A stretch of DNA of 64,000 nucleotides. Source: a virus (taxonomy: Duplodnaviria; Heunggongvirae; Uroviricota; Caudoviricetes). The notes beneath the pieces are model-generated. The model was given only the letters and a program-made list of their open reading frames with translations, was not told the DNA's origin and did not search any database. This document shows, piece by piece, positions 40,231 to 60,400 of the stretch. The stretch lies in the IMG/VR virus record IMGVR_UViG_3300042914_003231, positions 1 through 64,000 of that record. One strand, given 5' to 3'. Position numbers and translations under genes: made by a program. How positions within the stretch are numbered: position 1 is the first letter of the stretch; every line of letters begins with the position of its first letter.

Positions 40231-40261
40231 CAAAACTTTACAACTTTTAAAAACTAAAACA

Positions 40262-42591: not shown

Positions 42592-42592
42592 T

Positions 42593-42751: not shown

Positions 42752-42752
42752 C

Positions 42753-42980: not shown

Positions 42981-42981
42981 C

Positions 42982-43266: not shown

Positions 43267-43340
43267 ATTTAAGATTTATGAATACACTTTATTAAAGGTG
43301 GTAAAAACAAGTAGTAAAATAAAATTTAAAAAGAAATAAC

Positions 43341-43520
43341 ATGTCCGGATTAAAAAAAGGCTCTAAGAGCACAGGTGGTATAGATGCTACAAACCTTAAA
43401 GTGATCAAGCACTATAATGATACATTTGAGGACAATAACAAAAAAAGAAATCAACCTCGAGTAGAGGTGATGCAAGAATTCTTTCCTAATGGGAAAGCTC
43501 CTAAAGCTAAAAGAAAATAA
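43341..43520 (+). CDS. tiny basic protein, 59 aa (below the track cut-off)
   Basis: Manual translation: MSGLKKGSKSTGGIDATNLKVIKHYNDTFEDNNKKRNQPRVEVMQEFFPNGKAPKAKRK. Its stop overlaps the next ATG. Confidence 0.5.
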   Translation: MSGLKKGSKSTGGIDATNLKVIKHYNDTFEDNNKKRNQPRVEVMQEFFPNGKAPKAKRK

Positions 43521-44226: not shown

Positions 44227-44649
44227 ATGACAATAACTAGACCATTAAAAGGAACAAACAATAAGGAATCTCTTGAAGGTTCTGTTGCAAATTGTGTAAC
44301 TGAGCTAATGAATGCAGCTACAACATTTCATAAATTGCATCTTAAAGTAAGAGGTACTGGAGCATATGCTGCTCACAAAGCTCTTAATGAACTTTATACC
44401 GCATTACCCGAGCATGCAGATGCATTAGCTGAAGGATTCCAAGGAGCTTGTGAAAAGCTATTAGAGTGTTCAGATATGATCCCAAGAAAGGTTGAATCAG
44501 TAGATGAGGCAATAACTTACATAAGAGATCTTACTACTATGGTGAATAATCTTCAGAGTAAAATGCCATATTCAGAAATAGTGAATGAACTTGACACAGT
44601 TAAGGATACTTTTAACTCTGCCAAGTACAAATTATTATTTTTAAAATAA
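44227..44649 (+). CDS. Dps/ferritin-like four-helix-bundle protein, 140 aa
   Basis: FHKLHLKVRGTGAYAAHKALNELYTALPEHADALAEGF resembles the Dps H..vkG..F..lH..l.e.y......D.iAE pattern. Confidence 0.5.
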   Translation: MTITRPLKGTNNKESLEGSVANCVTELMNAATTFHKLHLKVRGTGAYAAHKALNELYTALPEHADALAEGFQGACEKLLECSDMIPRKVESVDEAITYIRDLTTMVNNLQSKMPYSEIVNELDTVKDTFNSAKYKLLFLK

Positions 44650-44719: not shown

Positions 44720-46114
44720 ATGAGTTATTTTAACCATGCCTTCTCCAAGCAATTTCTTGGAACCGGCCCAACCCGCAACCTGGTTAGTACTGGCGCAGCT
44801 GCTTCAGTAACCAACCCTTTTTCAAACGGTGGTTTCATCTTGACCCCTGGTACAAGCACAACCACTTTATCAAATCTTCCAGCAGGTACTACTAACTTGC
44901 CTAAATCAGGTTACTTTGGATTTTTTGATCCAAACACTTACCTGTCTATTGATCCAACATTGACGACTTACAACTGTTGTCCTTTAGTGTTAGCTTCGGC
45001 TTCATTATTGACTAATGACAAGATTGGTCCTTTTCACGGTGGTTACCGCGAGACTAACAAATCTAAGGTAATTAATCCTAAGTATGTACAAAAAGCATAC
45101 AAGGTTACTACTTGCGTTCCTCAACAAACTGTAGTTTCTGTAGGTAGCACTCCTCAAACTCTTTTACCAACTGTTCCTGAAAAATTCCAAGGTGGTACAA
45201 CTTCTGCAACATGTTGTTTTACTTTCCTTTGTGGTGAAACATACTACTTACGCGTAGATATTAAAGGTTCTCCTGCACTTCGTGCTTTGAATCACAATGC
45301 TTACCAAACAGTAGATGCTTATACAGGTTGCTGTGCAGGACCTACTCCAACACCGGTTGACTCTACTTTAGTGTTCATTCAGTGGGCTGAGCAAATCATT
45401 CAAAATAACTACTTAAAGCCTTTTGTGCTTCCAGTAGTATTTGATCAAACTGGTGCTGCATGGTATGCTCCTGGTACTACAGTAGATCCTATTACTTTAG
45501 CTCCAGTATTACCAGCTCAGTGGTGGACTGCTTATGTGTCTCCAGGATATACTACAGGTGCTTGTGGTGGTATGCGTTTATTCGGTGCCTTTGTTGAGAC
45601 AAAGTTTGGTAACTGTACTTTCCAAGTAACTGATTTCTTCGAGAAAGAGCCAATTAAGATTTATGCCTCTATGGTTGACTACACTGGTGATCCTTGTGTA
45701 TTCGAAGGAATTTGTGTGTATAACGACTGCCTTGGCTTACAAGGTATGGGCTTTGGTGAACAAGTTGTTCGTGACTTGATCCTTTCTGAATCATACTTAC
45801 AAAACTTCTTTGCAAGTAATGACTTCCGTGTGAGAGAGATCACTCAAGGTTATGACATCTTGAACTCTGTAAACCGTAATGCATTGTACACTCGTTACTT
45901 CTTGTTACATAGTGTGCCTCGTTTCAACAACCCTACTGGTGTGTTTGATAATGATCGTTACATGCTTGAGATTATTGTTCCTGAGGTTAACCCTCTTGTG
46001 CCGGTAGGAAATCCAGCATTGGATACCTTCTTGACCAACTGGTTAGCAAGTTGTGCAAACTGTGTACCTTTTGAAACACAATCTTGTACATACTGTACTC
46101 CAGAAAACAACTAA
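44720..46114 (+). CDS. abundant structural protein (major tail protein or second shell protein?), 464 aa
   Basis: Own promoter-like box and a strong terminator; capsid-like codon usage; several Cys pairs (NCC, CCF, GCCAG). Confidence 0.7.
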   Translation: MSYFNHAFSKQFLGTGPTRNLVSTGAAASVTNPFSNGGFILTPGTSTTTLSNLPAGTTNLPKSGYFGFFDPNTYLSIDPTLTTYNCCPLVLASASLLTNDKIGPFHGGYRETNKSKVINPKYVQKAYKVTTCVPQQTVVSVGSTPQTLLPTVPEKFQGGTTSATCCFTFLCGETYYLRVDIKGSPALRALNHNAYQTVDAYTGCCAGPTPTPVDSTLVFIQWAEQIIQNNYLKPFVLPVVFDQTGAAWYAPGTTVDPITLAPVLPAQWWTAYVSPGYTTGACGGMRLFGAFVETKFGNCTFQVTDFFEKEPIKIYASMVDYTGDPCVFEGICVYNDCLGLQGMGFGEQVVRDLILSESYLQNFFASNDFRVREITQGYDILNSVNRNALYTRYFLLHSVPRFNNPTGVFDNDRYMLEIIVPEVNPLVPVGNPALDTFLTNWLASCANCVPFETQSCTYCTPENN

Positions 46115-46167: not shown

Positions 46168-46488
46168 ATGCAGTCTATTCTTAGATGTAAAAAGCCGAGT
46201 TGCTCAAATAGTTTCGAGCAAACTAGAAAAGACAGAGTCTATTGTTCTAGACACTGTAAGACTACGCATAAGACTAACAAAAGCAAGAAGAAAAAGCAAA
46301 AGCCCTATACAATTTTTAAAAAAGATATTTGTGAAAATTGTAAATTTGTACCTATCCATTCTTGCCAGTTAGATGTAGATCATATTGATGGTGATAATAA
46401 TAACAATCAGCCATACAATCTGAGAACCTTATGTGCAAACTGTCATAGGCTAAAAACATTTATGAGTGAGGATTGGAAAAAAGTTTAA
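46168..46488 (+). CDS. HNH homing endonuclease, 106 aa
   Basis: CQLDVDHIDGDNNNNQPYNLRTLCANCHRLKT. Begins 7 nt after the terminator. Confidence 0.8.
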   Translation: MQSILRCKKPSCSNSFEQTRKDRVYCSRHCKTTHKTNKSKKKKQKPYTIFKKDICENCKFVPIHSCQLDVDHIDGDNNNNQPYNLRTLCANCHRLKTFMSEDWKKV

Positions 46489-46499
46489 TAAATTTCATC

Positions 46500-47063
46500 A
46501 TGTCAAGACACGTTTTAAGTCTGGAAATACCAGACACACTCAATAAGTGTATTCTAAGGGTAGTTGACACTAGTGTCTATGACCCAAACATAGCTGTTAC
46601 TTGTCCTCTGTTACAAGTAACTACACCTGGTTTTATACATCCTGTTAATTTTTCTGAGCCTCAAATTTTTCCCGGATTCATGGCGAACTTAACAGCTTGT
46701 GATCTAGGCCTTCAAACAGCAGATTGTAATACTGTGTTCTTTGATATTCCTGATGGGATTTATATCATAAAGTATAGTGTTGAACCAAAAAAGTTTGTGT
46801 ATGTTGAATACAATCACTTAAGAACAACTTGTGCTTTAAATCGAATCAATAAGATTCGATGCTCTCTAAACCTTGGAGCTTGTGAACCTCCTACAGATGT
46901 TTTACAAAAGCTTCAACAAATTGGTCTAATTGAACAATACATTAAAGCTGCTAAAGCCTATGTAGAAGATTGTCATGATCCTAAAAAAGGTATGGAAATC
47001 TTTAAGTATGCTGTAAAGCTAATTGATAAGTTATCTTGTTCAACTGGATGTGAAACTTGCTAA
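46500..47063 (+). CDS. Cys-containing virion protein, 187 aa
   Basis: Start set at ATG 46500. Ends CSTGCETC. Confidence 0.6.
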   Translation: MSRHVLSLEIPDTLNKCILRVVDTSVYDPNIAVTCPLLQVTTPGFIHPVNFSEPQIFPGFMANLTACDLGLQTADCNTVFFDIPDGIYIIKYSVEPKKFVYVEYNHLRTTCALNRINKIRCSLNLGACEPPTDVLQKLQQIGLIEQYIKAAKAYVEDCHDPKKGMEIFKYAVKLIDKLSCSTGCETC

Positions 47064-47085
47064 ATAATTTTTAAAACCAACAAAT

Positions 47086-47277
47086 ATGAATTGTACAAAC
47101 TGTGGAGCTAAATTAGGATGTGGTTGTCAAAAAAGAATTGCTAGTGATGGCAGATCTTGTTGTGCTAACTGCATTTCAGCATACGAAGCCGGTCTTAAAA
47201 AAACCAATTTAAGTATGCCAGGAACTAAACCTTCTAATGTAAGTGTGTTTTACACAGCTCCAAAAAAGACAAACTAA
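47086..47277 (+). CDS. small Cys-rich protein, 63 aa
   Basis: MNCTNCGAKLGCGCQKRIASDGRSCCANC. Confidence 0.6.
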   Translation: MNCTNCGAKLGCGCQKRIASDGRSCCANCISAYEAGLKKTNLSMPGTKPSNVSVFYTAPKKTN

Positions 47278-47280
47278 CAA

Positions 47281-50200
47281 ATGGCATGTTACGAAATACA
47301 AAATTGTCAGACTAATACTACTAGTATAATTAGTTATGCAGGACCTAGTTTAACACTTGGGGATATTATTAAACCTACACCTTCTATCGATCCGCCAAAT
47401 GTTAGTGCTGATTGCTGGACGGTTATTGGGGGTCCTATCCCTTGTGACAGTTTGCCTTTTGTAACAGTTACCAGTGTTGTTATTTATAATAGTTGCTCAC
47501 CTTGTATTGCAACACAACTTCCTACTTGTTATGAACTTACTGATTGTTCAGGAACTGTTGTATACTATACTAATGATAATCTATCATCTTTTGTAGGTAA
47601 CTATGTTTCTAGCCCTCTTTATCCGGGATATTGCTTTTATGTAGCAGTATCTCAAACTTGTACTAATCCTGTAGCTTTTAGTAATCCTGTTGCTTGTACT
47701 TGTACTTGTTATACTTTAACTGATTGTGAAGGAATTATTCCCCCATTTAATACATTCTCTAACTTAGCAGCTTATTTTGGTCAGGTAATTCAAATTAATG
47801 AAAATGGTGGATGTGCTGGACCATGTTTCTTTGTTAGTGTTAACACTGGAACATGTGGTGAACCTCGTGCTGCTACTGTTACACTTAATTGTCAACCGTG
47901 TCCTCCTTGTAATGATTGTTATGTACTACTTGACTGTACTACAAGACAACCGTTTCTCACTCTTTCAAACCCTACAGCAAATGGTATTGACTTATCTACT
48001 CTTATTGGTCAAGTTATTGGTCAAGTTTGTCTTGGCCCTAATAATACGCAATGTACAAATGGTTGTTGGGAAATTCAACAAGCTTCATCATGTGCTGGAT
48101 CAGTAAATGCTTATGTATATAACATATTCCAAGATTGTGTATCATGTAATGCAGTATGTTATAAGTTTACAAATTGTCAAACCTTACAAGAGATACTTGT
48201 TACTTACACTGTTCCGAATATTACTCTACCGAATCCATCAACTCTTTTAGGTAATACATTAGGTTCTTTATGTTTTAAACCTCCTACAAATTGTTTATCT
48301 GGGTGCTGGAATGTATCACTTAATGATACTGCAGATTGTTCAGGAGCTATTGATTGGACCGCTGCTCTTAGTTACACAGAGTTTGCAAATTGTACTCAGT
48401 GTCAGCCTGCGTGTTACCTTCTTACTGAATGTGCTCCGGCAATTACTCCTCCTTTTATTGTGAGTAATGACTTGAGTCTTTATGTAGGAAATGTTGTTAA
48501 AATATGTGACTCTCAAGGTAATTGTAATTGCTATAATGTAGAACTTGCACAAACTTGTGATGGATCTATTGTTATAGATAATGCTAATGCAAGCTTTACT
48601 ACTTGTGAAGAATGTAATTCTTGTGATTGTCCTCCAGGTTATACTAAGATTGATGACTATTGTCAAAAAATTACTAGTGTTCCTGCTATCTTAAATCCTT
48701 CTATTTATAACTCAGCTCCAGGAAGTATTAATGATAACTACGGTAGTCTTGGTACAAGATTCTATCCGAATGTTACAAGTCTTCCTTATCCTTTAACAGC
48801 TGTTACTGGACCAGATAGATTTGTTGATTTTGCTAATGTTAATGTTTCTTATACATCAAGTGTAGTAGGTATATGGGGTGGTCCTGTCGGATCAAGATTA
48901 AGTACGGTTGGTATATGGACATCTGTTGCTCCTAATCCTATAAACGAATGGATCGGTTTTGCACAGTGTATTAATATTCCTACAACCGGAACTTATTGTG
49001 TAGGTATTGGTGGTGATGATTGTGTAAGAGTAAAACTTGACGGAGTTATTATTGCAGAGGCTTGTATAGGATTTTTTGATTTTAGATACTGGCATGTATT
49101 TGAGTTAAATCTTACAGCAGGAACTCATGTGATTGTTGTTGAAGGAAATAGTGGAGGTGGACCTGCAGCCTTTGGTGCTGAAATTTATCAAACTAACATT
49201 GTTGCTTTACAAGCAATAACTACTGTCCCAGCTTTACAAGCTATTACTGTGTTTAGTACTTTCCCAATGAGAAGTACTCCAACACCATTCCAAACCGGTC
49301 AAACATCTGGTTACTCTTGTCCTCCAGGTTCAACACTTAATTTGTGTGGAACACCTAGTTGTACAATTATTGAAACTATTCCTTTTGTTTCTTGTGCTCC
49401 AACATTCAGAGTAACTGATTGTGCAGGTATTATGGAACCTTTTATTACTAATACAGATCTTTCTTCTTACCTAACAGGTATTCATAAAACTTGTATTACA
49501 ACTGCTAATTATAGTACTACTTGTTACTTATTAAGAGACTGTAACCGATTAGTAGATGAAGTTATTACAACAAGTAATATGGAGTCTTATCTATGGACTT
49601 CTGTTTCTCTTAATGAATATCCGGGATCATGCTTTTTAGTATTACCTTTACCTTCAAATACCACATGTGTAACTAATCCTGTAACATTAAGTTCTAATCC
49701 TTGTGTTTGCCCTAATGCTCAACAGCCTTGGCCAAATGGTTGCTATTGTGTTACAGTAGAAGAAATACTTATACCAGAAGTAGCTCCAGATTTTCTTGGA
49801 GTATTCCAAAATCAACTTTATAACTGCTGTGAGGACTGTCTTCGCGTGTGCTATTTACTTACAGATTGTCAAGGAGCCCTTGACCCAGTAGTAGTATGTA
49901 ATGATCTAGAACTATATATAGGAAAAATAATTCAGATTGAAGGTTGTGGTGATACTTGTTGGCAAGTTGCAACATCAAACAATTGTAATAGCAATACAAT
50001 CTTTGCTGGAGCTATTACCAGTTTCGAAACATGTGAAGATTGTCTTCCGCCAATTCCTCCAGCTCCACTTTTAGAGTTGCACCCAAGAAGAATTAAACCA
50101 GGGTACTTCAGCCCTAACTGTAAGATTCCTTTAGAATATATTGAAAAAGTAAACTGTACTTTTGCTAGACAAGTTTATGACAGTATGCTTATATTAAGAT

Positions 50201-51525
50201 ATGGTATAACAGTTTGTTGTGATCATGACTTACCTCTTTGGGCCAATCGAAAAGCAATTCTTGATTATGAGATGTTAATCGATCCTAGCTTATGTAAGTC
50301 TACATTATGTTATTGTCCAAAACCTTGTCTCATCAGTGTGGAAATTGTATTACTTCCTACATGTGTTGCTCCTGTAATAGTAAATACTTTGATAGATTTT
50401 GTATGTCCTGCTCCAGTAGTTATTGATGCAGTAATTGAATACAATCCAGTTACGGCTGATTGTAATTGCTATACAATAACTCCTCTGGAACAACCTATAG
50501 AAATGTTGTATTTGGATTGCTGTTGTGCTTTACAAAGAATAATAATTGATAATTTAGAACCAATAAATATTTGTGCTAGTACAACTCCTGCTATTTATCC
50601 ACAATCAGGTAGTGCTACTGTAGTACTTAATGGTGATTGTAACGATCTTGGTCCATGTAATCCTCCAATATGTTATTGTTGGAAGGTAACTAATACTAAT
50701 TCTCCAGGTTCACCTGATGGTGAAGCTTCATTTGATGCATGCTCTACAGGGCCATCCCAAACAAGTGTGTCTGCTTTTGTATCTGCTGGAAGCTTTATTT
50801 CTAATTGTGCATTTAACCCACCTACAGTTAGTTCAGGATTAGTTGTTGAAAACATGGGGCCGTGTGTTAATGGTCGTTGTGTACCTCCTCCATGTCAGTG
50901 TTATGAAGTAACATCTATGGTATCATGCCTATACAATTATACAAACTGTGATGGACAACCTGCTACTATACTAACAACTCCTGGTATTTCATACATCTGT
51001 TCTCAGACTTTACCATTTCCAGATGCTATTTGTTCAAACGAAAGTTCAGTAATTCTTACATCTTACCCTTGTGATCCACTACTTGGTACTTGTGGTCCAC
51101 CTCCTCCATGTGTTTGTTATATTGTAACAATTCAAACTCCGGGTGGTCAAGGTTGTAGTATAGATTATACTCCGTGTGGAGAATCACCTAGATCACAAAT
51201 ATTCCCTGATGGCCTAAACTATATCTGTTCACAAACTCCTCCTGTGCAAAGCGTTGGATCAACTTGCACAGTAACTATTCAGTCTACATCACTGAATTGT
51301 GGTTTAGGAGAATGTAATGATTTTGTATTACCTTGTAATTGTTATACATTTACAGTTCAAGGTAGTAATTTTGCATTCCAAAGTATAATAGACTGTTCAG
51401 GAAATCCTGGTGAAATAGGAGGTGCACCTGGAACAGTAGGTGTTGCTTGTGTACAAAATTTTGGGCCACCTAACCCTAATATTATTATATCCGCTACACC
51501 AGGAGCTTGTGGATCAACCTGCTAA
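47281..51525 (+). CDS. giant Cys-rich repeat protein with a central PA14-like domain (adhesin/receptor-binding candidate), 1414 aa
   Basis: At least 9 copies of a ~60-85-aa CY.LTDC module, about 5 C-terminal C.CY..T modules, and a PA14-like segment TGTYCVGIGGDDCVRVKLDGVII...LTAGTHVIVVEGNSGGGPAAFGAEIY (about nt 48706-49191). Confidence 0.75.
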   Translation: MACYEIQNCQTNTTSIISYAGPSLTLGDIIKPTPSIDPPNVSADCWTVIGGPIPCDSLPFVTVTSVVIYNSCSPCIATQLPTCYELTDCSGTVVYYTNDNLSSFVGNYVSSPLYPGYCFYVAVSQTCTNPVAFSNPVACTCTCYTLTDCEGIIPPFNTFSNLAAYFGQVIQINENGGCAGPCFFVSVNTGTCGEPRAATVTLNCQPCPPCNDCYVLLDCTTRQPFLTLSNPTANGIDLSTLIGQVIGQVCLGPNNTQCTNGCWEIQQASSCAGSVNAYVYNIFQDCVSCNAVCYKFTNCQTLQEILVTYTVPNITLPNPSTLLGNTLGSLCFKPPTNCLSGCWNVSLNDTADCSGAIDWTAALSYTEFANCTQCQPACYLLTECAPAITPPFIVSNDLSLYVGNVVKICDSQGNCNCYNVELAQTCDGSIVIDNANASFTTCEECNSCDCPPGYTKIDDYCQKITSVPAILNPSIYNSAPGSINDNYGSLGTRFYPNVTSLPYPLTAVTGPDRFVDFANVNVSYTSSVVGIWGGPVGSRLSTVGIWTSVAPNPINEWIGFAQCINIPTTGTYCVGIGGDDCVRVKLDGVIIAEACIGFFDFRYWHVFELNLTAGTHVIVVEGNSGGGPAAFGAEIYQTNIVALQAITTVPALQAITVFSTFPMRSTPTPFQTGQTSGYSCPPGSTLNLCGTPSCTIIETIPFVSCAPTFRVTDCAGIMEPFITNTDLSSYLTGIHKTCITTANYSTTCYLLRDCNRLVDEVITTSNMESYLWTSVSLNEYPGSCFLVLPLPSNTTCVTNPVTLSSNPCVCPNAQQPWPNGCYCVTVEEILIPEVAPDFLGVFQNQLYNCCEDCLRVCYLLTDCQGALDPVVVCNDLELYIGKIIQIEGCGDTCWQVATSNNCNSNTIFAGAITSFETCEDCLPPIPPAPLLELHPRRIKPGYFSPNCKIPLEYIEKVNCTFARQVYDSMLILRYGITVCCDHDLPLWANRKAILDYEMLIDPSLCKSTLCYCPKPCLISVEIVLLPTCVAPVIVNTLIDFVCPAPVVIDAVIEYNPVTADCNCYTITPLEQPIEMLYLDCCCALQRIIIDNLEPINICASTTPAIYPQSGSATVVLNGDCNDLGPCNPPICYCWKVTNTNSPGSPDGEASFDACSTGPSQTSVSAFVSAGSFISNCAFNPPTVSSGLVVENMGPCVNGRCVPPPCQCYEVTSMVSCLYNYTNCDGQPATILTTPGISYICSQTLPFPDAICSNESSVILTSYPCDPLLGTCGPPPPCVCYIVTIQTPGGQGCSIDYTPCGESPRSQIFPDGLNYICSQTPPVQSVGSTCTVTIQSTSLNCGLGECNDFVLPCNCYTFTVQGSNFAFQSIIDCSGNPGEIGGAPGTVGVACVQNFGPPNPNIIISATPGACGSTC

Positions 51526-51575
51526 TAAGATTTGCTAAATTGATAAAAAATAAGTATATTTAATAAACAAGAATA

Positions 51576-53045
51576 ATGAAGCCACTTAACATAGACAAAA
51601 CCGGTTGCAGTAATATATCATCTAATTGTGTTACATGGCAAGGTCCTGATATTGAGTGTATTAATTTATGTAAGGGTGACTCCGTTACTGAAGTAGTATA
51701 TAAATTAGCCCTTGAATTATGTAATCTTATGGACACTTTTGATCTTAAGAATTATGATCTTAAGTGCTTTTCTACCGGAGTGTGCCAACCTAAAGATTTT
51801 AAAGACTTCTTAAACATTTTAATCACCAAAGTATGTGCACTACAAGATTGCACTGGTTGCGGTGATAATTGTAATCCTTGCCCTACACCAACTATTCCTT
51901 CAACTAATGGGACAAATGGTGATCCTAATCCAGTAATGAAAGTGGCTCCTGCTTTTTACTATACTAATCAGTATGGTGATCAGGTTACTACCATGTCAAT
52001 GCAGGATTATGTAACTACTATTGGCAATCGTGTTTCTACACAAGTAAGCCAGATTCAGAATATTCAGGCTACTTTACTGCAGCAAAATGAGCGTATTACA
52101 AATCTTGAAAATAAACCAGATCCTAGTTTTAGTATGCCTCAAATTGTACAAGATGGGAATTTAGTTAATCTGGATGTTGTTTTACAAACATTAAGCAGTG
52201 AGTTTTCTCAGCTTGAAAATGCAACGGGTGATCCTAATTCCATCTACACAAACATGCAAAAAGTAGATGCTAATTTGTCCAACACGCCTAGTTTAGCTAC
52301 CCCTGGTGCTACTATGGGATCTTTACCAGGATGGACAGTAAATCCTTCTAACCAAGCTGAAAGCTTTGGTAACATGTGGAAAACTATCTTAGATATAAGA
52401 AATGCTGTTCAAAACTTAATCAATAATTATGTTCCAAATATCTGCTCTAGTATCTCTATTAGCTTAGTTGCTACTTATGACTCTAATGTTAACCAAGTAA
52501 CTCTTTACTTTACTGGTGCTATTCCTACAGATTTTGTTAACACAATCCCTGGAGGAACAACTTTTACAATAGCTGACGTATATAATAATACTACAACAGT
52601 ATTGATTGATATTCAAAGTGTAATTAATAATGTAGCTGGTTATGTTGTTCCTCTTGGAGGAACTCGTTTAAATACAGCAGGTAACTTGATTATATCAGCT
52701 AGTCCTTCTTATAATAGCAGATCAACAGGTTCTCAGTGTGTATCTACTCTAAACTTTACTATTGTAAATACAGGAGCCTGCCCTTCTGCAACTTACACTC
52801 CTACTAACAACTCTATTGAGTATTCATTTACTACAGAGTCAGGAACAAGAACATATACTGTTGAATTATCAAATAGTGGCGGTGGCCTACCTCCTACTAT
52901 ACAAACATTCACAACTACTAGTGTACAAAACATTACAAGTGTGTTTGCAGGATTAACTTCATTGACTAATTACACAGTAAGAATAACAGTAACTGTAAAT
53001 GGTGTATCAACAGCTTGTCCAATTACAGCAGTAACAACATTATAA
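51576..53045 (+). CDS. virion protein, 489 aa, with an N-terminal Cys module shared with 53057..54271
   Basis: SSNCVTWQGPDIECINLCKGDSVTEVVYKL aligns with DSKCVIYTGEDLPCIGVEQGNSIEQVILAL in the next gene. Confidence 0.65.
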   Translation: MKPLNIDKTGCSNISSNCVTWQGPDIECINLCKGDSVTEVVYKLALELCNLMDTFDLKNYDLKCFSTGVCQPKDFKDFLNILITKVCALQDCTGCGDNCNPCPTPTIPSTNGTNGDPNPVMKVAPAFYYTNQYGDQVTTMSMQDYVTTIGNRVSTQVSQIQNIQATLLQQNERITNLENKPDPSFSMPQIVQDGNLVNLDVVLQTLSSEFSQLENATGDPNSIYTNMQKVDANLSNTPSLATPGATMGSLPGWTVNPSNQAESFGNMWKTILDIRNAVQNLINNYVPNICSSISISLVATYDSNVNQVTLYFTGAIPTDFVNTIPGGTTFTIADVYNNTTTVLIDIQSVINNVAGYVVPLGGTRLNTAGNLIISASPSYNSRSTGSQCVSTLNFTIVNTGACPSATYTPTNNSIEYSFTTESGTRTYTVELSNSGGGLPPTIQTFTTTSVQNITSVFAGLTSLTNYTVRITVTVNGVSTACPITAVTTL

Positions 53046-53056
53046 AATAAACTAAA

Positions 53057-54271
53057 ATGAGCGATTGTACAAAATGTGGAAAATGTCAAGAAGACTGCGG
53101 GTGCATTCCTAGAGGTATGACAACTCCTAACTATTGCCCTGGAGATCTTCCGCCTTGTCCTGAGCCTTCACCATGTAATGAAACATTTGATAGCAAGTGT
53201 GTTATCTATACAGGAGAAGATCTTCCTTGTATTGGAGTAGAACAGGGTAATTCGATAGAGCAAGTTATTCTTGCTTTAAATGAAAAACTGTCTCCTCTGT
53301 TTTGTTTAGAGTGTCCTAGTTTAAATATCCCGGCTAATAATGCTGTGAATATCCCTTATGATCAAACTCTAAACTGGAATGCTGTTCCAGGAGCTACATC
53401 TTATGATGTGTACTTTGGAACAACTGCTGTTAATCCTCCTCTTGTATCAGCTGGTCAAATTTCAACAGCATATACTTATCCGTATCCGTTGCTTCCAGGA
53501 ACTGATTATTACTGGAAAGTAGTACCTAAGAATGCTACAAGTGCTGCACAAAATTGTGCTACTTACCAATTCAAGACTAAAGAAGTTACTTGTGTAAATC
53601 CTTTATCTTACATGCTTGAGTATGTAATGAGTGAGCAACCTTTAAACAGTGTGTTTAATCCTGGAACTTTAGTTGACTCTATAGTTGATTTTTTGAATAA
53701 TGGTGAGTTAATCACTAACTGTAATTTTTGTTGTCCTGATTGTAAAGATACTAACAGATATGTATTAGCTTCTGCTCCTTTGTACGCGTTACACTATAGC
53801 CAATTCTATAGTCTTCCTAATTGTCCTCCAATATGCTGTACAGAAGTAGATGCTTCTTTAACAGCTATGATTGCTACATTCAATAATGCTTCTCCATCTT
53901 TATCTGAAGCCTTTAAAGATATTCCTCCTGTGACAAACTGTTGTGGAACAAACTTCAGCGAATGTGCTGATTCTTTAAAAGTTTCTTTAGGTACATCACG
54001 GGATGCTATTTTCAAATTATTAGGTGTAGTAGAAGAATCTACAATTAGTAATACAACGCAGCTTTGTGTACTATCTACATTCTTAAACTCATTACCGCCA
54101 GCAGTTACTGATGCTCAAAAAGCTTCAATTATTGCTGCAATTCTTAACAATGGATTTGTTGTAGATTGCCGTCCAGAGGGTACTATTATTTCAGGAATTC
54201 AGAAATACAAACAATACATAACAGCTGTTCAAGATGGCTGCTTATGTTATAAACCATGTATAACACCATAA
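53057..54271 (+). CDS. Cys-rich virion protein with an FN3/Ig-like segment, 404 aa
   Basis: LNWNAVPGATSYDVYFGTT...GTDYYWKVVPKN is FN3-like. Many CxxC/CC pairs. Confidence 0.65.
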   Translation: MSDCTKCGKCQEDCGCIPRGMTTPNYCPGDLPPCPEPSPCNETFDSKCVIYTGEDLPCIGVEQGNSIEQVILALNEKLSPLFCLECPSLNIPANNAVNIPYDQTLNWNAVPGATSYDVYFGTTAVNPPLVSAGQISTAYTYPYPLLPGTDYYWKVVPKNATSAAQNCATYQFKTKEVTCVNPLSYMLEYVMSEQPLNSVFNPGTLVDSIVDFLNNGELITNCNFCCPDCKDTNRYVLASAPLYALHYSQFYSLPNCPPICCTEVDASLTAMIATFNNASPSLSEAFKDIPPVTNCCGTNFSECADSLKVSLGTSRDAIFKLLGVVEESTISNTTQLCVLSTFLNSLPPAVTDAQKASIIAAILNNGFVVDCRPEGTIISGIQKYKQYITAVQDGCLCYKPCITP

Positions 54272-54282
54272 ACCAATAAAAC

Positions 54283-55014
54283 ATGCTAACACCAGCAACA
54301 TTAACAGTAACATTCACAGCTAACTATGCAGGACCACACAGAATCTGTTGGAGAATCCAAGGATCTACAGGACCATATGTGTGCACTAATATAGTAAACT
54401 GCGCGGGAGGGGGAAACGTCTGCCAAGCAGTGGTATCCATAATGGTGGATCCTGAAAGTTGTGATCCAGTTACCTACGAAGGATATATTCAAGCAACTTG
54501 TAATCCGGAAGGATCTCCTGTAGATCAAGTACCTTGGGTGGCTACTTTTACACCTAATCCAGTATGTAAAATGTATAGTATTAGATCTACACCTAATGTG
54601 CTTTGTACAACTCCTCCACAATTGCTTCCGTTAATTCCTGCTACCACAATGGGTCTGAACTGTAATGGTACAGCTAGACCAGCTGTTCAGCTTTTTTGTG
54701 CTAAACCTGTTTATTTGTGTGCAGTAGGTATCATCCCTAATTTACCTCCAGAGTATGTTATGACATTATTTGATGGTTGCTGTTATGATTGTACTGAATA
54801 TGATGTTACTATTTCACCAGCTTGTCCTGGTTGTGTACTTAATGGATCAAGCATATATTACATAGATTGCAATACAAAAGAATTAATAAGACAAGACTTT
54901 ACTGGTAATACTGCTGTAACAATTTCCGGTATTTGTGCTGTTACTGGTTCTGTATCTTTACAAACGACTGAGGAAGCTAATGGTGTAATTACACCAATCG
55001 GACCTTGTTCATAA
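54283..55014 (+). CDS. Cys-rich virion protein, 243 aa
   Basis: ORF track; Cys residues throughout. Confidence 0.65.
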   Translation: MLTPATLTVTFTANYAGPHRICWRIQGSTGPYVCTNIVNCAGGGNVCQAVVSIMVDPESCDPVTYEGYIQATCNPEGSPVDQVPWVATFTPNPVCKMYSIRSTPNVLCTTPPQLLPLIPATTMGLNCNGTARPAVQLFCAKPVYLCAVGIIPNLPPEYVMTLFDGCCYDCTEYDVTISPACPGCVLNGSSIYYIDCNTKELIRQDFTGNTAVTISGICAVTGSVSLQTTEEANGVITPIGPCS

Positions 55015-55161: not shown

Positions 55162-55764
55162 ATGGGAGATATGATGTTAAAAAAATTTAGAAAACCTGAC
55201 GTTAAGGCTCCTAGATGTAGACCTGGAGCAAGTAGACTAGTTAACAAAACTTTTCTAGATGAGCTTGCTAGTTGCCATCCTGAAACAAAAGACTTAGGAA
55301 TAGCCGATGTAAATAAAATATTACAAACAATGCATGGTAAAATGTGGGACCATGCTGCTAACTATCGAGATGGAATAGAGCTTTTTGAACAGCTTGGTTT
55401 TGTATTTGTTGGTACCTGCAATTCTCCAAAGAAGTACAATGTGGATTATGGTAACTCTATTAAGAATGGATCTACTCTAAGACACAGAAATTTTGAGTCT
55501 GATAATTATTTAGCTAAGATCTTCTATACAAACTTTGCTTCTAAGTATAAGTTTAAAAATAGAGATATGTGGATGTTTGAACCAACGCGTGCATTTCAAA
55601 GAACTGTATCTAAGATATATCCTGAGAAGTGGAAGATTTTTGTTCAAGTAGAGAACAACAGAAATATCTCAAGATACATAGAAAAAGCTATGAAATCTTC
55701 TTTTATAAAAAAGAGATCTATGCTGCCAGTAGATGATAACTATGATGAATTCAATTTGGACTAA
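55162..55764 (+). CDS. hypothetical protein, 200 aa
   Basis: Start set at ATG 55162, just after the TATATTTA box at 55153-55160. Confidence 0.6.
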   Translation: MGDMMLKKFRKPDVKAPRCRPGASRLVNKTFLDELASCHPETKDLGIADVNKILQTMHGKMWDHAANYRDGIELFEQLGFVFVGTCNSPKKYNVDYGNSIKNGSTLRHRNFESDNYLAKIFYTNFASKYKFKNRDMWMFEPTRAFQRTVSKIYPEKWKIFVQVENNRNISRYIEKAMKSSFIKKRSMLPVDDNYDEFNLD

Positions 55765-56435
55765 TGACAACAATAGGTGATTCAATATCAAGGGTTAGAA
55801 ACCTAGTTAAAGGTGTTAAGGAAGATGCTTTCCTTACTGACCGACTTATCTTTTCTCTAATCGAGAAGTATGGTAAGCTTCTTATTAAAAGACAAGATGA
55901 TCAGAACAAGATCATGAAGTTTCAGTCTTTGTTTGAGAAACTACCTTGTGTAGAACTTATTGAAGTAGATAAAATAGAAGCTTGTTGTGCTGGCATAAAA
56001 TCCGGTTGTACAATTCGAAGAACTAAAGAAAAATTACCTACAGTCCTTGAAGGAGCATATGGTCCATTGTTTAGAACAATATCATCTATTGATGGCTCTA
56101 TTGAGTTTTTTAAAACTTATCCTACTACTTATGTAGCAATGACACATAGTACTAATTTTAAGTACAATAAAAATAAGTATTATTGGTATTTAGGTGGGCA
56201 TCTTTATTTTCCAAATATCGATTGGGATTCTGTTTCTGTAGAAGGCTTATGGGATGGAAGTATTCAAAGATATATTTGTGGTGGAGATGTTTGCTTGCCA
56301 AGACAACAACAAAAAATTCCTCTTCCGGAATACATGTTTGCTGACATAGAAAATATGGTTATTAAAGATCTTCTTACTACTATACAGTTACCGGTTGAAA
56401 ATAATGATGATAATCAAAACATCTTAAGAACATAA
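55764..56435 (+). CDS. hypothetical structural protein, 223 aa
   Basis: ORF track; ATGA-type junction. Confidence 0.6.
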   Translation: MTTIGDSISRVRNLVKGVKEDAFLTDRLIFSLIEKYGKLLIKRQDDQNKIMKFQSLFEKLPCVELIEVDKIEACCAGIKSGCTIRRTKEKLPTVLEGAYGPLFRTISSIDGSIEFFKTYPTTYVAMTHSTNFKYNKNKYYWYLGGHLYFPNIDWDSVSVEGLWDGSIQRYICGGDVCLPRQQQKIPLPEYMFADIENMVIKDLLTTIQLPVENNDDNQNILRT

Positions 56436-56439: not shown

Positions 56440-57462
56440 ATGAGTTACAACTATACCCTGAAATATAAGACATTCAACCAGTTGCTAGAAGAAATACATG
56501 TGGATTTTCAGAATTACAACTTAGAATCTTTTATCGAACCTCAACAATTAATTAAGGTTGCTAAGCGTGTTAGTTATGAACTCGGCTTAAGAGTTCTTAT
56601 GACAAAAGAAGCTCTAGTAGAAATTCATAATGGAAAAGTAAGACTACCTGATGATTTTTATGTTCTTAACTACGCTTTGGTGTGTGATCATCTTACTATT
56701 AATGAGCCGGTGATTCAAGGAACTAATATGCAAGAAATTCCTTTAGCTCCTCCTCGTTATGAAACTTCTGCTATTATTGATCCTTGTACAGATGCTATTC
56801 CAAATTGCCAAACTTGTGGGGTACCTACATATCCATGCGCATGTCCTAGTCCGTCTAATTGCCTACCTCCGCCTCCTAATGAAGTAAATTGCACTAAGCC
56901 TAGAATAGTACTTACTTGTAAAGGTAATAATTATGAGCTAGTTCAAGTTGTGAAGACTCAAACTAGAACTTTTAGAAGATTATGGGCTTTACAATTTCTT
57001 GCTAATGATCAGACTATTGCTTGCAACTGTCCAAATCTTTATGTGAAGAGTCCTAACCATGCTTGGATACGAGATGGTTTTTTGTTTACTAATTTAGAAA
57101 ATGCTAATATATACATTAGTTATCAAGGAATGTTAGAAGATGATGAAGGAAACCTTTTAGTTCCGGACCATGATCTTATCAATGAATACTATGAGTATGC
57201 TCTTAAAAAAAGAATTCTTGAAAATCTTATCATGAATGATGAGAATGTTTCTCAGGCAAAGATTCAACTTATTGAAAATGGTTATAGAACATCTAGAAAT
57301 TTAGCTATGAGTGTTGTAAATACTCCTAACTTTGCTGAAATGAAAGAAATGTGGTGGCAAAATAGAAAAGCTCAGTATGGTAAATATTATGATATGTTTT
57401 CTAGCTATCCATGGAATCAAGCTTTCAATATTAATGTTCAAGGACAAATGAACCAATACTAA
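56440..57462 (+). CDS. structural protein with a Cys/Pro-rich insert, 340 aa
   Basis: CQTCGVPTYPCACPSPSNCLPPPPNEVNC. Confidence 0.6.
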   Translation: MSYNYTLKYKTFNQLLEEIHVDFQNYNLESFIEPQQLIKVAKRVSYELGLRVLMTKEALVEIHNGKVRLPDDFYVLNYALVCDHLTINEPVIQGTNMQEIPLAPPRYETSAIIDPCTDAIPNCQTCGVPTYPCACPSPSNCLPPPPNEVNCTKPRIVLTCKGNNYELVQVVKTQTRTFRRLWALQFLANDQTIACNCPNLYVKSPNHAWIRDGFLFTNLENANIYISYQGMLEDDEGNLLVPDHDLINEYYEYALKKRILENLIMNDENVSQAKIQLIENGYRTSRNLAMSVVNTPNFAEMKEMWWQNRKAQYGKYYDMFSSYPWNQAFNINVQGQMNQY

Positions 57463-60400
57463 TGGCACAAGAACAGAATACAAGCAATAATCAAGTAAGA
57501 ACTTTTGATAAGTCTCTTAATGAAGATGTTAATGACTTTCATTTGCCATCCAATGAATGGACTCATGGTAGAAATGTGATCAATAACTCTGTAACTGGTG
57601 ACTTAGGTAAACTTGGAAACGAGCCTGCAAACATTCTTTGTGTTCAAGCACCTTATCCTATTATCGGGTTTATTCATATTATTGAAGATCGATGGGCAGT
57701 TTTCTCTACTGATGGAACTAACTCCGAGATTGGTCTGTTTATAGAAGGTAATTGTGGTACTTTGGAGCCAGCATATTATACTATTGTAAATGCTCCGTGC
57801 TTAAAGTTCAATATAGAAAAGCTAATCATTGGTGTTTCCCGTCCTACAAGTACTTGTACTTACAAGTTATATTGGGATGATGGTATCAATCCTTCACGCG
57901 TTCTTGAGATAGACATAGATAATCCTAGCAGAAACTGGTATACTGATCCTAATAGTACTCTTCCTTGGGTACAGAATTGTGTAGATAGTAATGGTCCTTC
58001 TCCTGGTGGATGTATCATTTGTACTAATACTCCGGTGTTAGACTGTGATAAGATCAGACTAGCATTATTTATCAATCCTATTTGTCCTCGCGTAGAGAAT
58101 GGGACACAAGGTGGAAACCTTCTTAATGGTTCTTACATGGTTGCTATGGCCTATGCAATAAAGGGTCAGAAGATATCTGATTGGTATGTTTCCAATGTAC
58201 AGTCATTATGGACTCATCAGAATTCATCAGGCTCTATTGATGTGTTCATCGATAGTATTGATCCTGATTTTGATGAAGTAATTGTTACTGTGATCTCTGT
58301 TACTAACCAGCAAACTGTTGCAAGACAAGCTGGAGTATACAGCACGCGTCAAACTCGCTTAGGCTTTGATATTATATCAGACACATGGCCGGCTGTCCCT
58401 ATTGAACAGCTTCCTCTAATGACTCCTATTATTGATAAGTCAGATGCTATGTACAATGTTGGTGACTATCTTATTCGTGTAGGACCAACATCAAAAGAAG
58501 ATTTCAATTATCAGCCTCTGGCAAATCAGATTGTTTCTAAGTGGCAATCTGTAGAATACCCAGCTGACTACTATTATAAAGGAAACAATAAGACCGGTTA
58601 CATGAGAGATGAGGTTTATCCTTTTTTCATTGTGTGGGAATATGATACAGGTGATGAATCTGCAGCATATCACATTCCTGGCCGTCCTGCTTTTTCTTCA
58701 GATCTTACACCTCCTGCAGGTAATGTGATTGCTGGAGAAACACAAACTTGGCAAGTATACAATACAGCAACTCAAACTGCTACTCCTGGTACTGTATTAC
58801 CGGATGGTGGTGTAGTTATTGCTGAAGGCTTAATGGGCTACTGGCAATCAACAGAATACTATCCTGATAAAAAGCCTCAAGTATGGAATGCAAGCGCACA
58901 TTGTTGGTCATCTCTGAACCCGGGCTCGATCCCAGGATGCTTAGAACCAACTCCACCTATACCGTATACAGGTACTGCTTCAGGCCTAGCATCATTCGAT
59001 TTATGTGGTACTCCAATACGACATCATAAGTTTCCTGAAGATAGTCTTACAACTCAAACAAACCGTTTTAATGCTGGTGTAGGAAACAAGATTAGAATTA
59101 TGGGTGTGAAGTTTGAAAACATCAGAGCTCCTAGAAGAAGTGATGGAAGTCTTATTCCTGGTATTATAGGATACAAGATCATGCGTGGTACTCGTAATGG
59201 TAACAAAACTGTTATTGCTAAGGGTATGATCAATAACACACATGAGTATGATATTCCTGGAGCACCGGGCACTAAAGGCTATTATCCTAACTACCCATTT
59301 AATGATCTTAGAGATGATCCATTTTTAAGTACTACTCAGACAAGTACAGCATCTATTTTAAATCCTGCTTTACCAGGAGGAGATATAAAAAATTACAATG
59401 CTATGCCTGGAGGATTTGGTACAGGTAGATTCAGTCCTAATCTAGTAACATTTCATTCACCAGAAACTAACTTCAACAATCCTTATTTAGCTACAAAAGA
59501 GCTAAGGATCTATCAAGGTATTAATGGTAATGTGAAAGGCAAGTTTGAAATATCAGAACAGCATCCTAAAGAAAAACTTATTACTGATATGGCTTTTATC
59601 ATAGCTTCTATTGGAGGTTTAGGTGTTGCTGCTTTGGCTACAAATGGTAATAGAAGAGTTCATAGAGAATATCCTAACTATCAAGGTTTCTCACAAGAGC
59701 CTAATTACTTTACTAAGAATACTTATAACTTAAATGAGAATGGTTCAATAAATGGTACTGACACTTCTACTCAAGCTCCTTATCCAGAAGCAGGTACTGA
59801 AACCGGTGGTCCTTTACCTACACCTGTTGCAACAGCCAATCTGATAACACCTACTCCGATCATTACTACTTTAAATGAAACAACTACTAATAATGTAAAT
59901 GGGACTACTGATTTGAGTGTTCCTCAGAAAACTAATATAATATCTCAGCCAGCACCAACTCATTTACCTATTATGAGTCCTGCTTTAGTTGCAGTGTTTT
60001 CAGCTTTTACAGGATATGATGCAGTTAAAAATTCAGGAGCCTCTTTAGCTTTAACTATTGTTCCAGGAACTACAGATGATGTAGCTCAAGAAGCCGGAAT
60101 GAATACAGCAAATACAGCAGCTACAAGTTCACTTACAGGTGTATCAAGTGCTCAGATAACTATTGAAAATGAAGATGGTGATTACCAAGGTATCCCGCAA
60201 CCATTTAGAACAATAAGTTCTTTTCCATTATTCTTAAACTACTATAGTGATGGTACAGACAGTTTGATAAGACTTATCCGTGCTATCATCCGTTACAAGG
60301 ATTATGTAGTAAGATATCATTCACATGGTTTCTACAACAGAACAGAAAACAGACCTGTTACTTTTAGAACAGCTTTATCTGATCAGCAATATATTGATCC

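Follow-up and report, generated by a model that had tools for sequence, protein, structure and literature searches.

A cysteine-rich gene block in the probable tail module of a divergent crAss-like phage from freshwater

The window studied here (the 64,000 nucleotides at positions 1 to 64,000 of IMG/VR record IMGVR_UViG_3300042914_003231) is, judged from its genes, part of a divergent crAss-like phage, uncultured and from freshwater, and six adjacent genes in it encode proteins that are packed with cysteine. We consider it reasonably probable that this block specifies the tail-fibre apparatus of a crAss-like podophage and that its cysteines are structural and engaged mostly in disulfides. Most of what is known about crassviruses comes from the gut, and to our knowledge, crAss001 is the only one of them with a structural atlas. 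The phages described here would represent a large environmental sister group that keeps the hub, ring, and muzzle plan of crAss001, with the fibres placed beside the hub and their Cys content raised five-fold.

The cysteine-rich block and its genomic position

The six ORFs lie head to tail on the plus strand at 46473-55014 and together hold 204 Cys in 2,800 aa (7.3%), compared with 1.3% in 15 other tabulated structural ORFs (binomial p = 8e-83 versus the block) and with 3.4% expected from base composition alone. The 187-, 63-, 1414-, 489-, 404-, and 243-aa proteins contain 11, 7, 122, 16, 29, and 19 Cys, respectively, and the residues occur in CC, CxC, CxxC, CxxxC, and CxxxxC contexts. An earlier reading of the letters and ORF translations (the sequence-only reading) had described six adjacent Cys-packed ORFs with Cys-rich satellites nearby, and our counts corroborate this, including every Cys context that it named; the satellites are the ORF at 40175, with 6 Cys in its tail, the ORF at 44720 with 17, and that at 56440 (R1) with 11. 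The enrichment of the 489-aa protein is only moderate (3.3%), and half of its Cys are within the first 100 residues. The 187-aa ORF starts at ATG 46500, and an upstream TTG at 46473 would give a protein of 196 aa; the public gene calls for the source contig have identical ORF sizes. The features of the region are as follows.

44720..46114, + strand: 464-aa conserved structural-module protein with 17 Cys, just upstream of the block and outside it
46168..46488, + strand: HNH homing endonuclease ORF (Pfam and PHROG HNH matches)
46500..47063, + strand: 187-aa THA homologue (two-domain fold match) with 11 Cys
47086..47277, + strand: 63-aa protein in the THB position (by gene position), with a six-Cys knuckle
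47281..51525, + strand: 1414-aa giant fibre/adhesin protein with 122 Cys, product of the variable "slot" gene common to all relatives
47287..48621, + strand: six type-A Cys-rich repeats, aa 3-447 of the 1414-aa protein
48622..49380, + strand: PA14-type lectin-like beta-sandwich domain, aa 448-700 (Foldseek; paralogous copies)
49381..50055, + strand: three more type-A repeats, aa 701-925 of the 1414-aa protein
50056..50460, + strand: conserved slot-protein core, aa 926-1060, with long helices at aa 951-1007 in the AF2 model
50461..51522, + strand: five type-B Cys-rich repeats (CxCY.., 6-8 Cys each), aa 1061-1414, the most variable and distal part
51576..53045, + strand: 489-aa fibre protein (N-terminal module alignment; Lbo-JY46 annotation)
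53057..54271, + strand: 404-aa fibre protein with an N-terminal Cys module and 29 Cys
54283..55014, + strand: 243-aa Cys-rich accessory fibre protein with 19 Cys
55764..56435, + strand: tail ring protein R2 (Pfam CrAss_Ring_2, E 2.6e-22; hhalign to crAss001 gp40, 96%)
56440..57462, + strand: tail ring protein R1 (Pfam CrAss_Ring_1, E 5e-12)
57462..62831, + strand: muzzle protein (Pfam crAss_MUZ, E 4e-27), end of the tail module

The Pfam matches within the window to the Crass capsid, ring proteins R2 and R1, and the muzzle, together with a gene order that parallels crAss001 gp32 to gp44, where THA and THB lie ahead of R2, R1, and MUZ, identify the region as a crassvirus tail module. The block occupies the place of the crAss001 tail hub genes, with the four fibre genes and a 224-aa ORF lying between the 187-aa gene and R2. 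More than 500 related environmental contigs have the same gene order, and lakes and an estuary appear in the names of related contigs. The clade includes contigs of 114-128 kb. The position of the block is fixed between the head/ring genes and R2-R1-MUZ in 65 related loci, and the slot region measures 3.9-8.4 kb with 2-7 ORFs among phages whose MCP is 83-93% identical to that of the window. Judged by homology and synteny, the proteins of the block are very probably virion (tail) proteins; the THA fold match, the synteny with crAss001, and the tail fibre annotation in Leptolyngbya phage Lbo-JY46 all favor this part of the earlier interpretation. A host among the Bacteroidota is not established, and the closest isolated phage has a cyanobacterium as its host. 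Assigning a host from MAG bins was dropped since the taxa were inconsistent across bins, which suggests mis-binned phage contigs.

Homology searches with the block itself gave little. Neither megablast with the block as query, run against 50,697 phage records, nor tblastn with the 1414-aa protein found a match, and nothing meaningful came back when the six proteins were scanned against Pfam and PHROG; matches to coronavirus S1, fibrinogen, CDC24, and Bc2l-C were below threshold and were discarded. When 12 family profiles were aligned with 27 crAss001 proteins by hhalign, the matches were limited to R1, R2, and a weak IHF-like one of the 224-aa ORF, and PDB profile searches with the 187-, 464-, 63-, 489-, 234-, and 339-aa families gave nothing convincing. 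From their positions, the 464-, 234-, and 339-aa proteins are candidates for auxiliary capsid, ring R3/R4, or gp33-like proteins, and some members of the 464-aa family match PHROGs for virion structural, tail fibre, or baseplate proteins. The HNH ORF, which precedes the hub gene and lies outside the structural block, has Cys of the HNH zinc-finger type; it is missing from related loci, and the public gene calls for the source contig do not include it.

Probable hub and fibre proteins

In crAss001, tail hub protein A (THA) is gp38, tail hub protein B (THB) is gp39, R2 is gp40, and R1 is gp43 (PMC10172136). THA and THB build an A2B hub there, which sits on R1/R2 and is disulfide cross-linked. 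The 187-aa protein begins with a beta-sandwich and ends with three helices and a Cys-rich tail (..SCSTGCETC). It shares the beta-sandwich and helical domain of PDB 7QOJ chain G, and its gene, like that of THA, precedes those for R2, R1, and the muzzle in the tail module. With about 8% identity to gp38, this match is structural only: hhalign of the 187-aa family against gp38 stayed below 30% probability, neither Pfam nor PHROG matched the protein, a PDB profile search with the family found nothing at E up to 10, and 7QOJ was not among the Foldseek matches. The 63-aa protein, a candidate counterpart of tail hub protein B by gene position only, starts with a CxxC-x5-CxC-x11-CxxC knuckle with six Cys invariant in an alignment of 25 homologues and ends in a variable, basic tail; it has no Pfam, PHROG, or PDB match, and hhalign found no match between its family and gp39.

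The slot gene encodes 345 to ~1270 aa in the 65 related loci and is Cys-rich every time; a BNR repeat is found in the slot protein of one relative. In the window, its type-A repeats follow the consensus CYxLTDC..NL..Y.G..I...C...CW.V....C.......CxxC, with six invariant Cys and an optional pair. A set of 153 repeat instances includes 91 with 6 framework Cys and 39 with 8, and the two optional Cys co-occur (phi 0.76). A profile search of 1.84 billion proteins retrieved 477 clusters, and among the best 144 matches, 143 correspond to ORFs of the fetched phage loci; no Pfam family covers this repeat. The type-B region is modeled as all-beta (pLDDT ~70-90) and is matched in no more than 17% of related loci. 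By comparison, aa 951-1000 are matched in all 80 of 80 loci and aa 851-950 in 86-87%, and the core at aa 926-1060 is a candidate docking or oligomerization region.

The best Foldseek matches of the aa 448-700 model are PA14 lectins and adhesins (Pleurotus lectin, E 3.5e-4; Epa1; Flo1; MpIBP PA14, probability 0.99). This segment is 28-29% identical (E 3e-20 and 9e-23) to paralogous copies in the relatives P0011 and P0015, and these second copies pass Pfam PA14 with 32-38 bits versus a threshold of 24. The window segment itself has no match to Pfam PA14 (PF07691) at E up to 1, and the orthologous copies in P0014 and P0025 reach Pfam E values of 0.034 and 0.23 only; the assignment is based on the PA14 fold and on homology to bona fide PA14 domains, below the Pfam gathering threshold.

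The 489- and 404-aa proteins have the typical fibre architecture of a conserved N-terminal module with a variable C terminus. The module of the 489-aa protein (aa 1-100) has 8 invariant or nearly invariant Cys and is present in 559 viral contigs, and the Lbo-JY46 gene that carries it is annotated as a tail fibre protein; it is followed by a coiled-coil-like stretch, a variable body, and an FN3-like C terminus, with weak matches to FN3 (DCC, E 0.04) and to coiled coils. The 404-aa protein has a Cys module (aa 1-86) that is paralogous to the 489-type module (hhalign probability of 96%, E 2e-9), an FN3-like region (aa 85-176) common to bacterial proteins with PF00041 or PF25788, and a Cys-rich C-terminal domain; in relatives, the module is fused to C termini of 160-715 aa or stands alone in ORFs of 78-82 aa. 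A ferredoxin-type Fe-S site at its N terminus (CxxCxxCxxxC) was rejected, as conservation of the motif does not extend across the module family. The gene for the 243-aa protein occurs in 14 of 65 loci, and Pfam and PHROG hold no family match for it. Three of the fibre genes (1414, 489, and 404 aa) combine a conserved anchor part with exchangeable distal domains, and the fibre genes are hypervariable among close relatives. The suggestion that the block encodes adhesins fits the PA14 and FN3-like domains, while the accompanying view that no module belongs to a nameable family holds for the two Cys-rich repeat types and the N-terminal fibre modules and fails for THA, PA14, and FN3. The type-A and type-B repeats and the common N-terminal fibre modules are candidate new domain families, and the conserved N-terminal module offers a practical marker for finding and swapping receptor-binding genes in this clade.

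Chemistry of the cysteines and competing explanations

Cys columns are conserved at 0.78-0.99 versus 0.37-0.63 for other residues in every family, and Cys is, together with Trp, the best-conserved residue type. The values are 0.99 versus 0.57 for the 404-aa family (71 homologues), 0.89 versus 0.45 for the 1414-aa family (34 full-length homologues with 41-64% identity), 0.86 versus 0.37 for the 63-aa family, 0.80 versus 0.45 for the 243-aa family (8 sequences), and 0.78 versus 0.39 for the 489-aa family, and outside the block, they are 0.94 versus 0.52 for the 464-aa family (62 homologues) and 0.90 versus 0.50 for R1. A lack of Cys conservation among homologues, which the sequence-only reading had named as grounds for its own rejection, is hence not what we find. 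Variable Cys come and go in pairs, also where they are distant in sequence: in the 464-aa protein, C132 is gained or lost with C456 (46/0/0/16) and C166 with C282, and in R2, the same holds for C62 and C74 (18/0/0/40), all as raw counts that ignore kinship.

Structural disulfides are the most likely state for most Cys of the block. In favor of this reading, the repeats hold 6 or 8 Cys; against it are the odd whole-protein totals in 56 of 70 members of the 404-aa family, where the modal count of 29 is odd, and in 14 of 34 members of the 1414-aa family. The premise that phages rarely rely on disulfides is weaker than had been stated, since the tail barrel and fibre hubs of crAss001 are disulfide stabilized as seen by cryo-EM (Bayfield et al. 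2023, PMC10172136; PDB 7QOJ), with bonds between hubs, from hub to ring, and between R1 and R2 (PMC10172136), and since cyanophage Pam3 attaches its fibres to the baseplate wedge through disulfides and sheds the fibres when treated with DTT (PMC9942802).

It is possible, if doubtful, that the same hub and fibre proteins instead use their Cys mainly to bind zinc or another metal in knuckles and ribbons and fold in the cytoplasm without oxidation. Zinc would be most plausible in the 63-aa protein, and the CxxC pairs in that protein, at the 404-aa N terminus, and at the repeat ends are as compatible with zinc sites as with disulfides: all six Cys are invariant in the CxxC..CxC..CxxC of the 63-aa protein, the 404-aa N terminus reads CxxCxxCxxxCxC, and the type-A repeat starts with C-x5-C and ends with CxxC, which together could make one four-Cys site. 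Phage assembly takes place in the reducing cytoplasm, which favors metal sites, and no thioredoxin, Erv/thiol oxidase, or DsbA-like gene is found among 40 other ORFs of the window, which covers about half of the genome. However, the variable Cys co-vary as pairs and not as fours, His is nearly missing from the six ORFs (11 of 2,800 aa), the CxxCxxC cluster of the 404-aa protein is conserved at only 0.43-0.73 across the wider module family, neither Pfam nor the PDB gives a zinc-ribbon or zinc-finger match, and THA, the structural homologue, puts its Cys into disulfides in crAss001.

Two further explanations carry much less weight. That the block is not virion associated, and instead encodes lysis-released decoys, adhesins for the lysing cell, or anti-defense proteins within a structural cluster, agrees with most of its proteins being without a family match, but it is very improbable given the fixed position between the head/ring genes and R2-R1-MUZ in 65 loci, the THA fold of the first gene, the fibre-typical conserved N-terminal module with its variable C terminus, and the homologue annotated as a tail fibre in a cultured phage. 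We give almost no credence to the Cys richness being a compositional by-product of low-complexity repeat expansion, with thiols that have no specific role. Much of the Cys does sit in tandem repeats of the 1414-aa protein, and base composition alone gives the 3.4% quoted above in random sequence, but the conservation in the 404- and 1414-aa families already contradicts this explanation, and the non-repetitive 187-, 404-, 243-, and 464-aa proteins are enriched too.

Returning to a disulfide-braced tail, the THA homologue and the six-Cys 63-aa protein would form a fibre-docking hub onto which the 1414-, 489-, 404-, and 243-aa fibre/adhesin proteins dock, anchored by the paralogous N-terminal Cys modules (489 and 404 aa) and by the internal core (1414 aa). 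The exchangeable distal parts (the PA14 lectin domain, the FN3-like domains, and the two Cys-rich beta-repeat arrays) presumably bind glycans of the host surface. Most Cys would form intradomain disulfides that rigidify small repeat domains, and a minority would be interchain bonds holding fibres, hub, R1, and R2 to one another, a further step in the bracing known from crAss001, with oxidation most likely during or after lysis in oxic water. If the Cys are indeed in disulfides, few known phage tails would be as heavily cross-linked as these, and the particles would be a natural system for studying how a cytoplasm-assembled virus gains disulfides of the extracellular type. We think it unlikely that the picture can be widened to a large, global freshwater clade whose host-recognition apparatus is made of two new Cys-rich mini-domain families, whose virions need oxidative maturation outside the cell before they can infect, and whose cross-linked fibres act as a redox switch, letting go or setting off ejection upon reduction at the host envelope.

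Comparison with known tails and adhesins

The likeness to crAss001 includes the order of hub genes followed by R2, R1, and MUZ and a homing endonuclease directly before the hub gene, and crAss001 THA resembles the 187-aa protein in its two-domain fold, its 11 Cys, and its Cys-rich C-terminal tail. In contrast, the crAss001 fibre genes (gp22-gp26) are upstream of the capsid gene and have 0.3-1.3% Cys, whereas those of the window are between hub and rings with 3-9% Cys. R1 of the window differs by an acquired Cys-rich insert (aa 116-160, nt 56785-56919), which holds most of its 11 Cys, whereas R1 of crAss001 has 2, and the 63-aa protein with its six invariant Cys is unlike gp39, which has 114 aa and 2 Cys.

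Pam3, also a freshwater phage with Cys-rich docking regions, offers a precedent for redox-dependent fibre attachment, and reduction at the host envelope has been proposed to release its fibres or trigger ejection (PMC9942802). It differs in being a myophage with unrelated proteins, a handful of disulfides, and no Cys-rich repeat arrays. The central beta-sandwich of the 1414-aa protein resembles the PA14 lectins and adhesins (PF07691; Candida Epa, yeast Flo, Marinomonas MpIBP, and Pleurotus lectin), which would suggest a carbohydrate-binding role, but unlike these, it is below the Pfam threshold and is set between phage-specific Cys-rich repeat arrays.

The closest cultured relative is Leptolyngbya phage Lbo-JY46 (PP438436). 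Most of its downstream structural proteins, including both fibre genes, have ~1-2.4% Cys, and the giant Cys-rich repeat protein has no detected homologue there, indicating that the extreme enrichment is specific to the clade of the window. Its structural module is otherwise syntenic and shares TerL, portal, an MCP with 28% identity, R2, a THA-like 174-aa gene (E 4e-8), and fibre genes with 489-type and 404-type N-terminal modules. Lbo-JY46 likewise has a tRNA array that includes tRNA-Cys, and two of its short ORFs are at 4.3% and 5.8% Cys.

Position and Cys content of the block

The six Cys-packed genes that the sequence-only reading had singled out (187, 63, 1414, 489, 404, and 243 aa) lie head-to-tail on the plus strand and fill 46500-55014, and the same six ORF sizes are found in the public gene calls of the source contig (JGI sample 3300059473). 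Their combined 2,800 residues include 204 Cys, or 7.3% (5.9, 11.1, 8.6, 3.3, 7.2, and 7.8%, respectively), compared to an average of 1.3% in the window's other structural ORFs (binomial p = 8e-83 versus the block) and 3.4% expected for random sequence of the local base composition. The Cys-rich tails or inserts noted outside the block are also present, in the ORFs at 40175, 44720, and 56440. The following landmarks surround the block.

Landmark genes around the block (window positions)
38508-40133: Crassvirus major capsid protein (MCP), Pfam E 7e-32
46168-46488, plus strand: HNH homing endonuclease ORF, 106 aa with 9 Cys (8.5%), separating the 464-aa gene from the hub gene
55764-56435: ring protein 2 (R2), Pfam E 3e-22
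56440-57462: ring protein 1 (R1), Pfam E 5e-12
57462-62831: muzzle protein (MUZ), Pfam E 4e-27

The gene order of phage crAss001 is MCP gp32, gp33, R4, R3, auxiliary capsid protein gp36, HNH, tail hub proteins THA (gp38) and THB (gp39), R2, HNH, IHF-like, R1, and MUZ. In the window, the MCP gene is followed by genes for a 292-aa and a 339-aa protein, small basic ORFs, 234-, 140-, and 464-aa proteins, HNH, the six Cys-rich genes, a 224-aa protein, R2, R1, and MUZ. Judged by this comparison of gene orders, the block starts exactly in the hub slot. Its first protein, the 187-aa THA homologue by fold, has 11 Cys and ends in ..LSCSTGCETC; crAss001 THA, with 215 aa, has the same Cys count and the C terminus ..NNCKSPTSNCGCYG. 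The 63-aa protein in the THB position has six invariant Cys (CxxC-x5-CxC-x11-CxxC), and no similarity to gp39 was detectable. The HNH ORF is missing from related loci, is uncalled on the public contig, and is outside the Cys-rich phenomenon; in crAss001, the corresponding junction before THA is also occupied by a homing endonuclease, gp37, unrelated to that of the window.

Three other features of the structural module were observed. The 292-aa ORF immediately downstream of the capsid gene (40175-41053, plus strand), with 6 Cys in its tail, had no homologue in 81 related loci even though its neighbors on both sides are conserved; from where it lies, it may represent a variable slot for head decorations or head fibers. 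A run of small Lys-rich ORFs of 52 to 104 aa (42120-43520, plus strand), three of them with a C-terminal Cys (..KSKKSC, ..SKSKKC, and ..RKWNC) and one carrying DUF6321 in precomputed Pfam matches, may encode basic internal or DNA-associated virion proteins. The 140-aa ORF (44227-44649, plus strand), conserved in 47 of 65 loci, matches DUF5856 (E 1e-14) and has a subthreshold ferritin-like similarity.

No DNA-level similarity to phage records was found, and among cultured phages the closest capsid protein, from Leptolyngbya phage Lbo-JY46, is 28% identical to the window's. The capsid gene has matches of 83 to 93% identity in at least 600 IMG/VR contigs and occurs in MAG-binned contigs whose names indicate Lake Mendota, Delaware Bay, and other waters, which places the window in a large, uncultured, mainly freshwater crAss-like clade. 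Clade contigs are also deposited inside MAGs (L163 to L178), and some of these contigs are 114 to 120 kb and probably complete genomes. The taxa of these MAGs (Rickettsiales, Pseudomonadales, Micavibrio, Clostridium, Campylobacteraceae, Chitinophagaceae, and Bacteroidia) disagree, which suggests binning artifacts and not host information. Genes of the window are mostly on the minus strand before about 12.9 kb and mostly on the plus strand thereafter; among 40 ORFs of positions 1 to 31000, the only other recognizable Pfam families were Band_7/SPFH, holin 4_1, PcfJ, peptidase M15/VanY, an HU-like DNA-binding protein, and a PD-(D/E)XK nuclease.

Candidate fiber proteins in a variable region

We fetched 80 loci centered on homologues of the 489-aa protein, 65 of which cover the whole region. 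All 65 have the same arrangement: the 464-aa, THA-like, and 63-aa genes come first, then a single giant variable Cys-rich gene, the 489-type gene, and between one and three genes beginning with the 404-type module, followed by an optional 243-type gene, the 224-type gene, R2, R1, and MUZ. The interval between the 63-aa and 224-type genes ranges from 3.9 to 8.4 kb with 2 to 7 ORFs and contains 3.5 to 7.2% Cys in every locus, the window being near the top of the range.

Tail fibers and receptor-binding proteins classically combine a conserved N-terminal adaptor with a distal part that can be exchanged. In the 489-aa protein, the first 100 residues are 50 to 90% identical among aligned relatives while the remainder diverges; C11, C18, C28, C32, C49, C64, and C87 are invariant; so is C70 in this set, and in a second alignment it is nearly so (0.88). 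The 404-aa protein begins with an 86-residue module paralogous to that of the 489-aa protein (hhalign 96%, E 2e-9); in relatives, this 404-type module is joined to unrelated C termini of 160 to 715 aa or stands as a lone ORF of 78 to 82 aa. Residues 85 to 176 of the 404-aa protein form an FN3-like domain, common to bacterial surface proteins. In Lbo-JY46, the syntenic gene with the 489-type module is annotated as a tail fiber protein, and the product of a 174-aa gene shows sequence homology to the 187-aa protein (E 4e-8).

The 1414-aa protein, in the giant-gene slot, is built from two Cys-rich repeat types, A and B, and two other domains.

Domains of the 1414-aa protein
aa 3-447: six type-A repeats
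aa 448-700: beta-sandwich domain (PA14-type)
aa 701-925: three further type-A repeats
aa 926-1060: conserved core with long helices
aa 1061-1414: five type-B repeats

A predicted model of aa 378-1414 is reliable at the domain level (mean pLDDT 78) but not in its interdomain geometry (pTM 0.37), and in the PDB it is matched best by PA14 lectins and adhesins. Although the window's PA14-type domain was below the Pfam threshold, two homologues carry a second copy that is above it and shares 28 to 29% identity with the window's (E 3e-20 and 9e-23). Across the fetched loci, 86 to 100% of relatives match aa 851-1000 and about 55 to 75% match the type-A arrays, compared to 24% for the PA14 region and at most 17% for the type-B tip. 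The type-A profile found 477 clusters among 1.84 billion representative proteins; 143 of the 144 best new matches correspond to ORFs in the phage loci that we had fetched, mostly to the giant slot gene itself, so that the repeat is a clade-specific, unnamed domain.

In relatives, the variable slot (L093:8170-9942 and L088:13608-15242) can also harbor other binding or enzymatic modules: BNR/Asp-box repeats in one ORF (below threshold at E 2e-5 to 4e-5) and a weak SprB repeat match in another. About 18% of the 1414-aa protein is shared with P0049, a protein of 1,773 aa for which crAss_MUZ and cadherin domains are listed in precomputed Pfam matches; modules of the fiber protein therefore occur in other crAss-like phages as fusions with muzzle proteins as well.

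Conservation and likely chemistry of the Cys residues

The sequence-only reading had named a lack of Cys conservation among homologues as evidence against it. We find the opposite in all eight families, with Cys columns at 0.78 to 0.99 and other columns at 0.37 to 0.57; in the 404-aa family, Trp alone matches Cys.

Conservation of Cys versus other residues (number of sequences)
464-aa family: 0.94 versus 0.52 (n = 62)
187-aa family: 0.83 versus 0.51 (n = 59)
63-aa family: 0.86 versus 0.37 (n = 38)
1414-aa family: 0.89 versus 0.45 (n = 34)
489-aa family: 0.78 versus 0.39 (n = 26)
404-aa family: 0.99 versus 0.57 (n = 71)
243-aa family: 0.80 versus 0.45 (n = 8)
R1 family: 0.90 versus 0.50 (n = 54)

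The main chemistry of these residues is probably disulfide bonding. One line of evidence is that the variable Cys are gained and lost in pairs. Counting sequences with both Cys, the first only, the second only, and neither, and ignoring phylogeny, we obtained 46/0/0/16 for C132 with C456 and 46/3/0/13 for C166 with C282 in the 464-aa protein, 18/0/0/40 for C62 with C74 in R2, 49/0/0/12 for positions 27 and 180 of the 234-aa protein, and 22/0/0/12 for C250 with C258 in the 1414-aa protein, where C581 and C595 within the PA14 domain also come and go together. The type-A repeat likewise has six invariant Cys plus an optional pair (6 Cys in 91 and 8 in 39 of 153 instances), and 14 of 16 segments cut from the 1414-aa protein have an even number, the exceptions being aa 448-690 (9 Cys) and aa 748-856 (11 Cys).

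Zinc as the main chemistry seems less likely, although several points count against disulfides. Phages assemble in a reducing cytoplasm, and no redox enzyme was found among 40 other ORFs of the window, which is about half of a genome of roughly 115 to 125 kb. The CxxC motifs of the 63-aa protein and of the repeat boundaries would also suit zinc, and odd whole-protein Cys counts are frequent (mode 29 in the 404-aa family), but an odd count may instead reflect one interchain bond per chain. In favor of disulfides, His is scarce (11 of 2,800 residues in the six ORFs), and there is precedent in crAss001, where Cys of the structural homologue make hub-hub, hub-ring, and R1-R2 disulfides, and in Pam3, whose fibers are held by disulfides that are cleaved by DTT.

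Relation to known phages

The tail hub, ring, and muzzle architecture and the disulfide bracing of the hub were already known from crAss001, as were disulfide-tethered fibers from Pam3, and PA14 and FN3 domains are common adhesin parts. We found no literature description of fiber genes between hub and rings, of a five-fold Cys enrichment across whole fibers with 122 Cys in one protein, of the type-A and type-B repeat families, of shared N-terminal Cys modules, or of a Cys-rich insert in R1. Lbo-JY46, the isolate closest to the window, follows the same gene plan, but its fiber genes and most other downstream structural proteins have only about 1 to 2.4% Cys (two short ORFs have 4.3% and 5.8%). 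This low content despite a common plan indicates that the enrichment is a derived trait of the window's clade.

The window also carries a tRNA array (15080-18648, plus strand) of 24 genes representing all 20 amino acids, among them a TAT-anticodon tRNA-Ile and, at 15886-15958, tRNA-Cys(GCA); a comparable array in Lbo-JY46 contains two genes for tRNA-Cys. Supply of tRNA-Cys by the phage would be consistent with the large Cys requirement of the late genes, but the array is not Cys specific.
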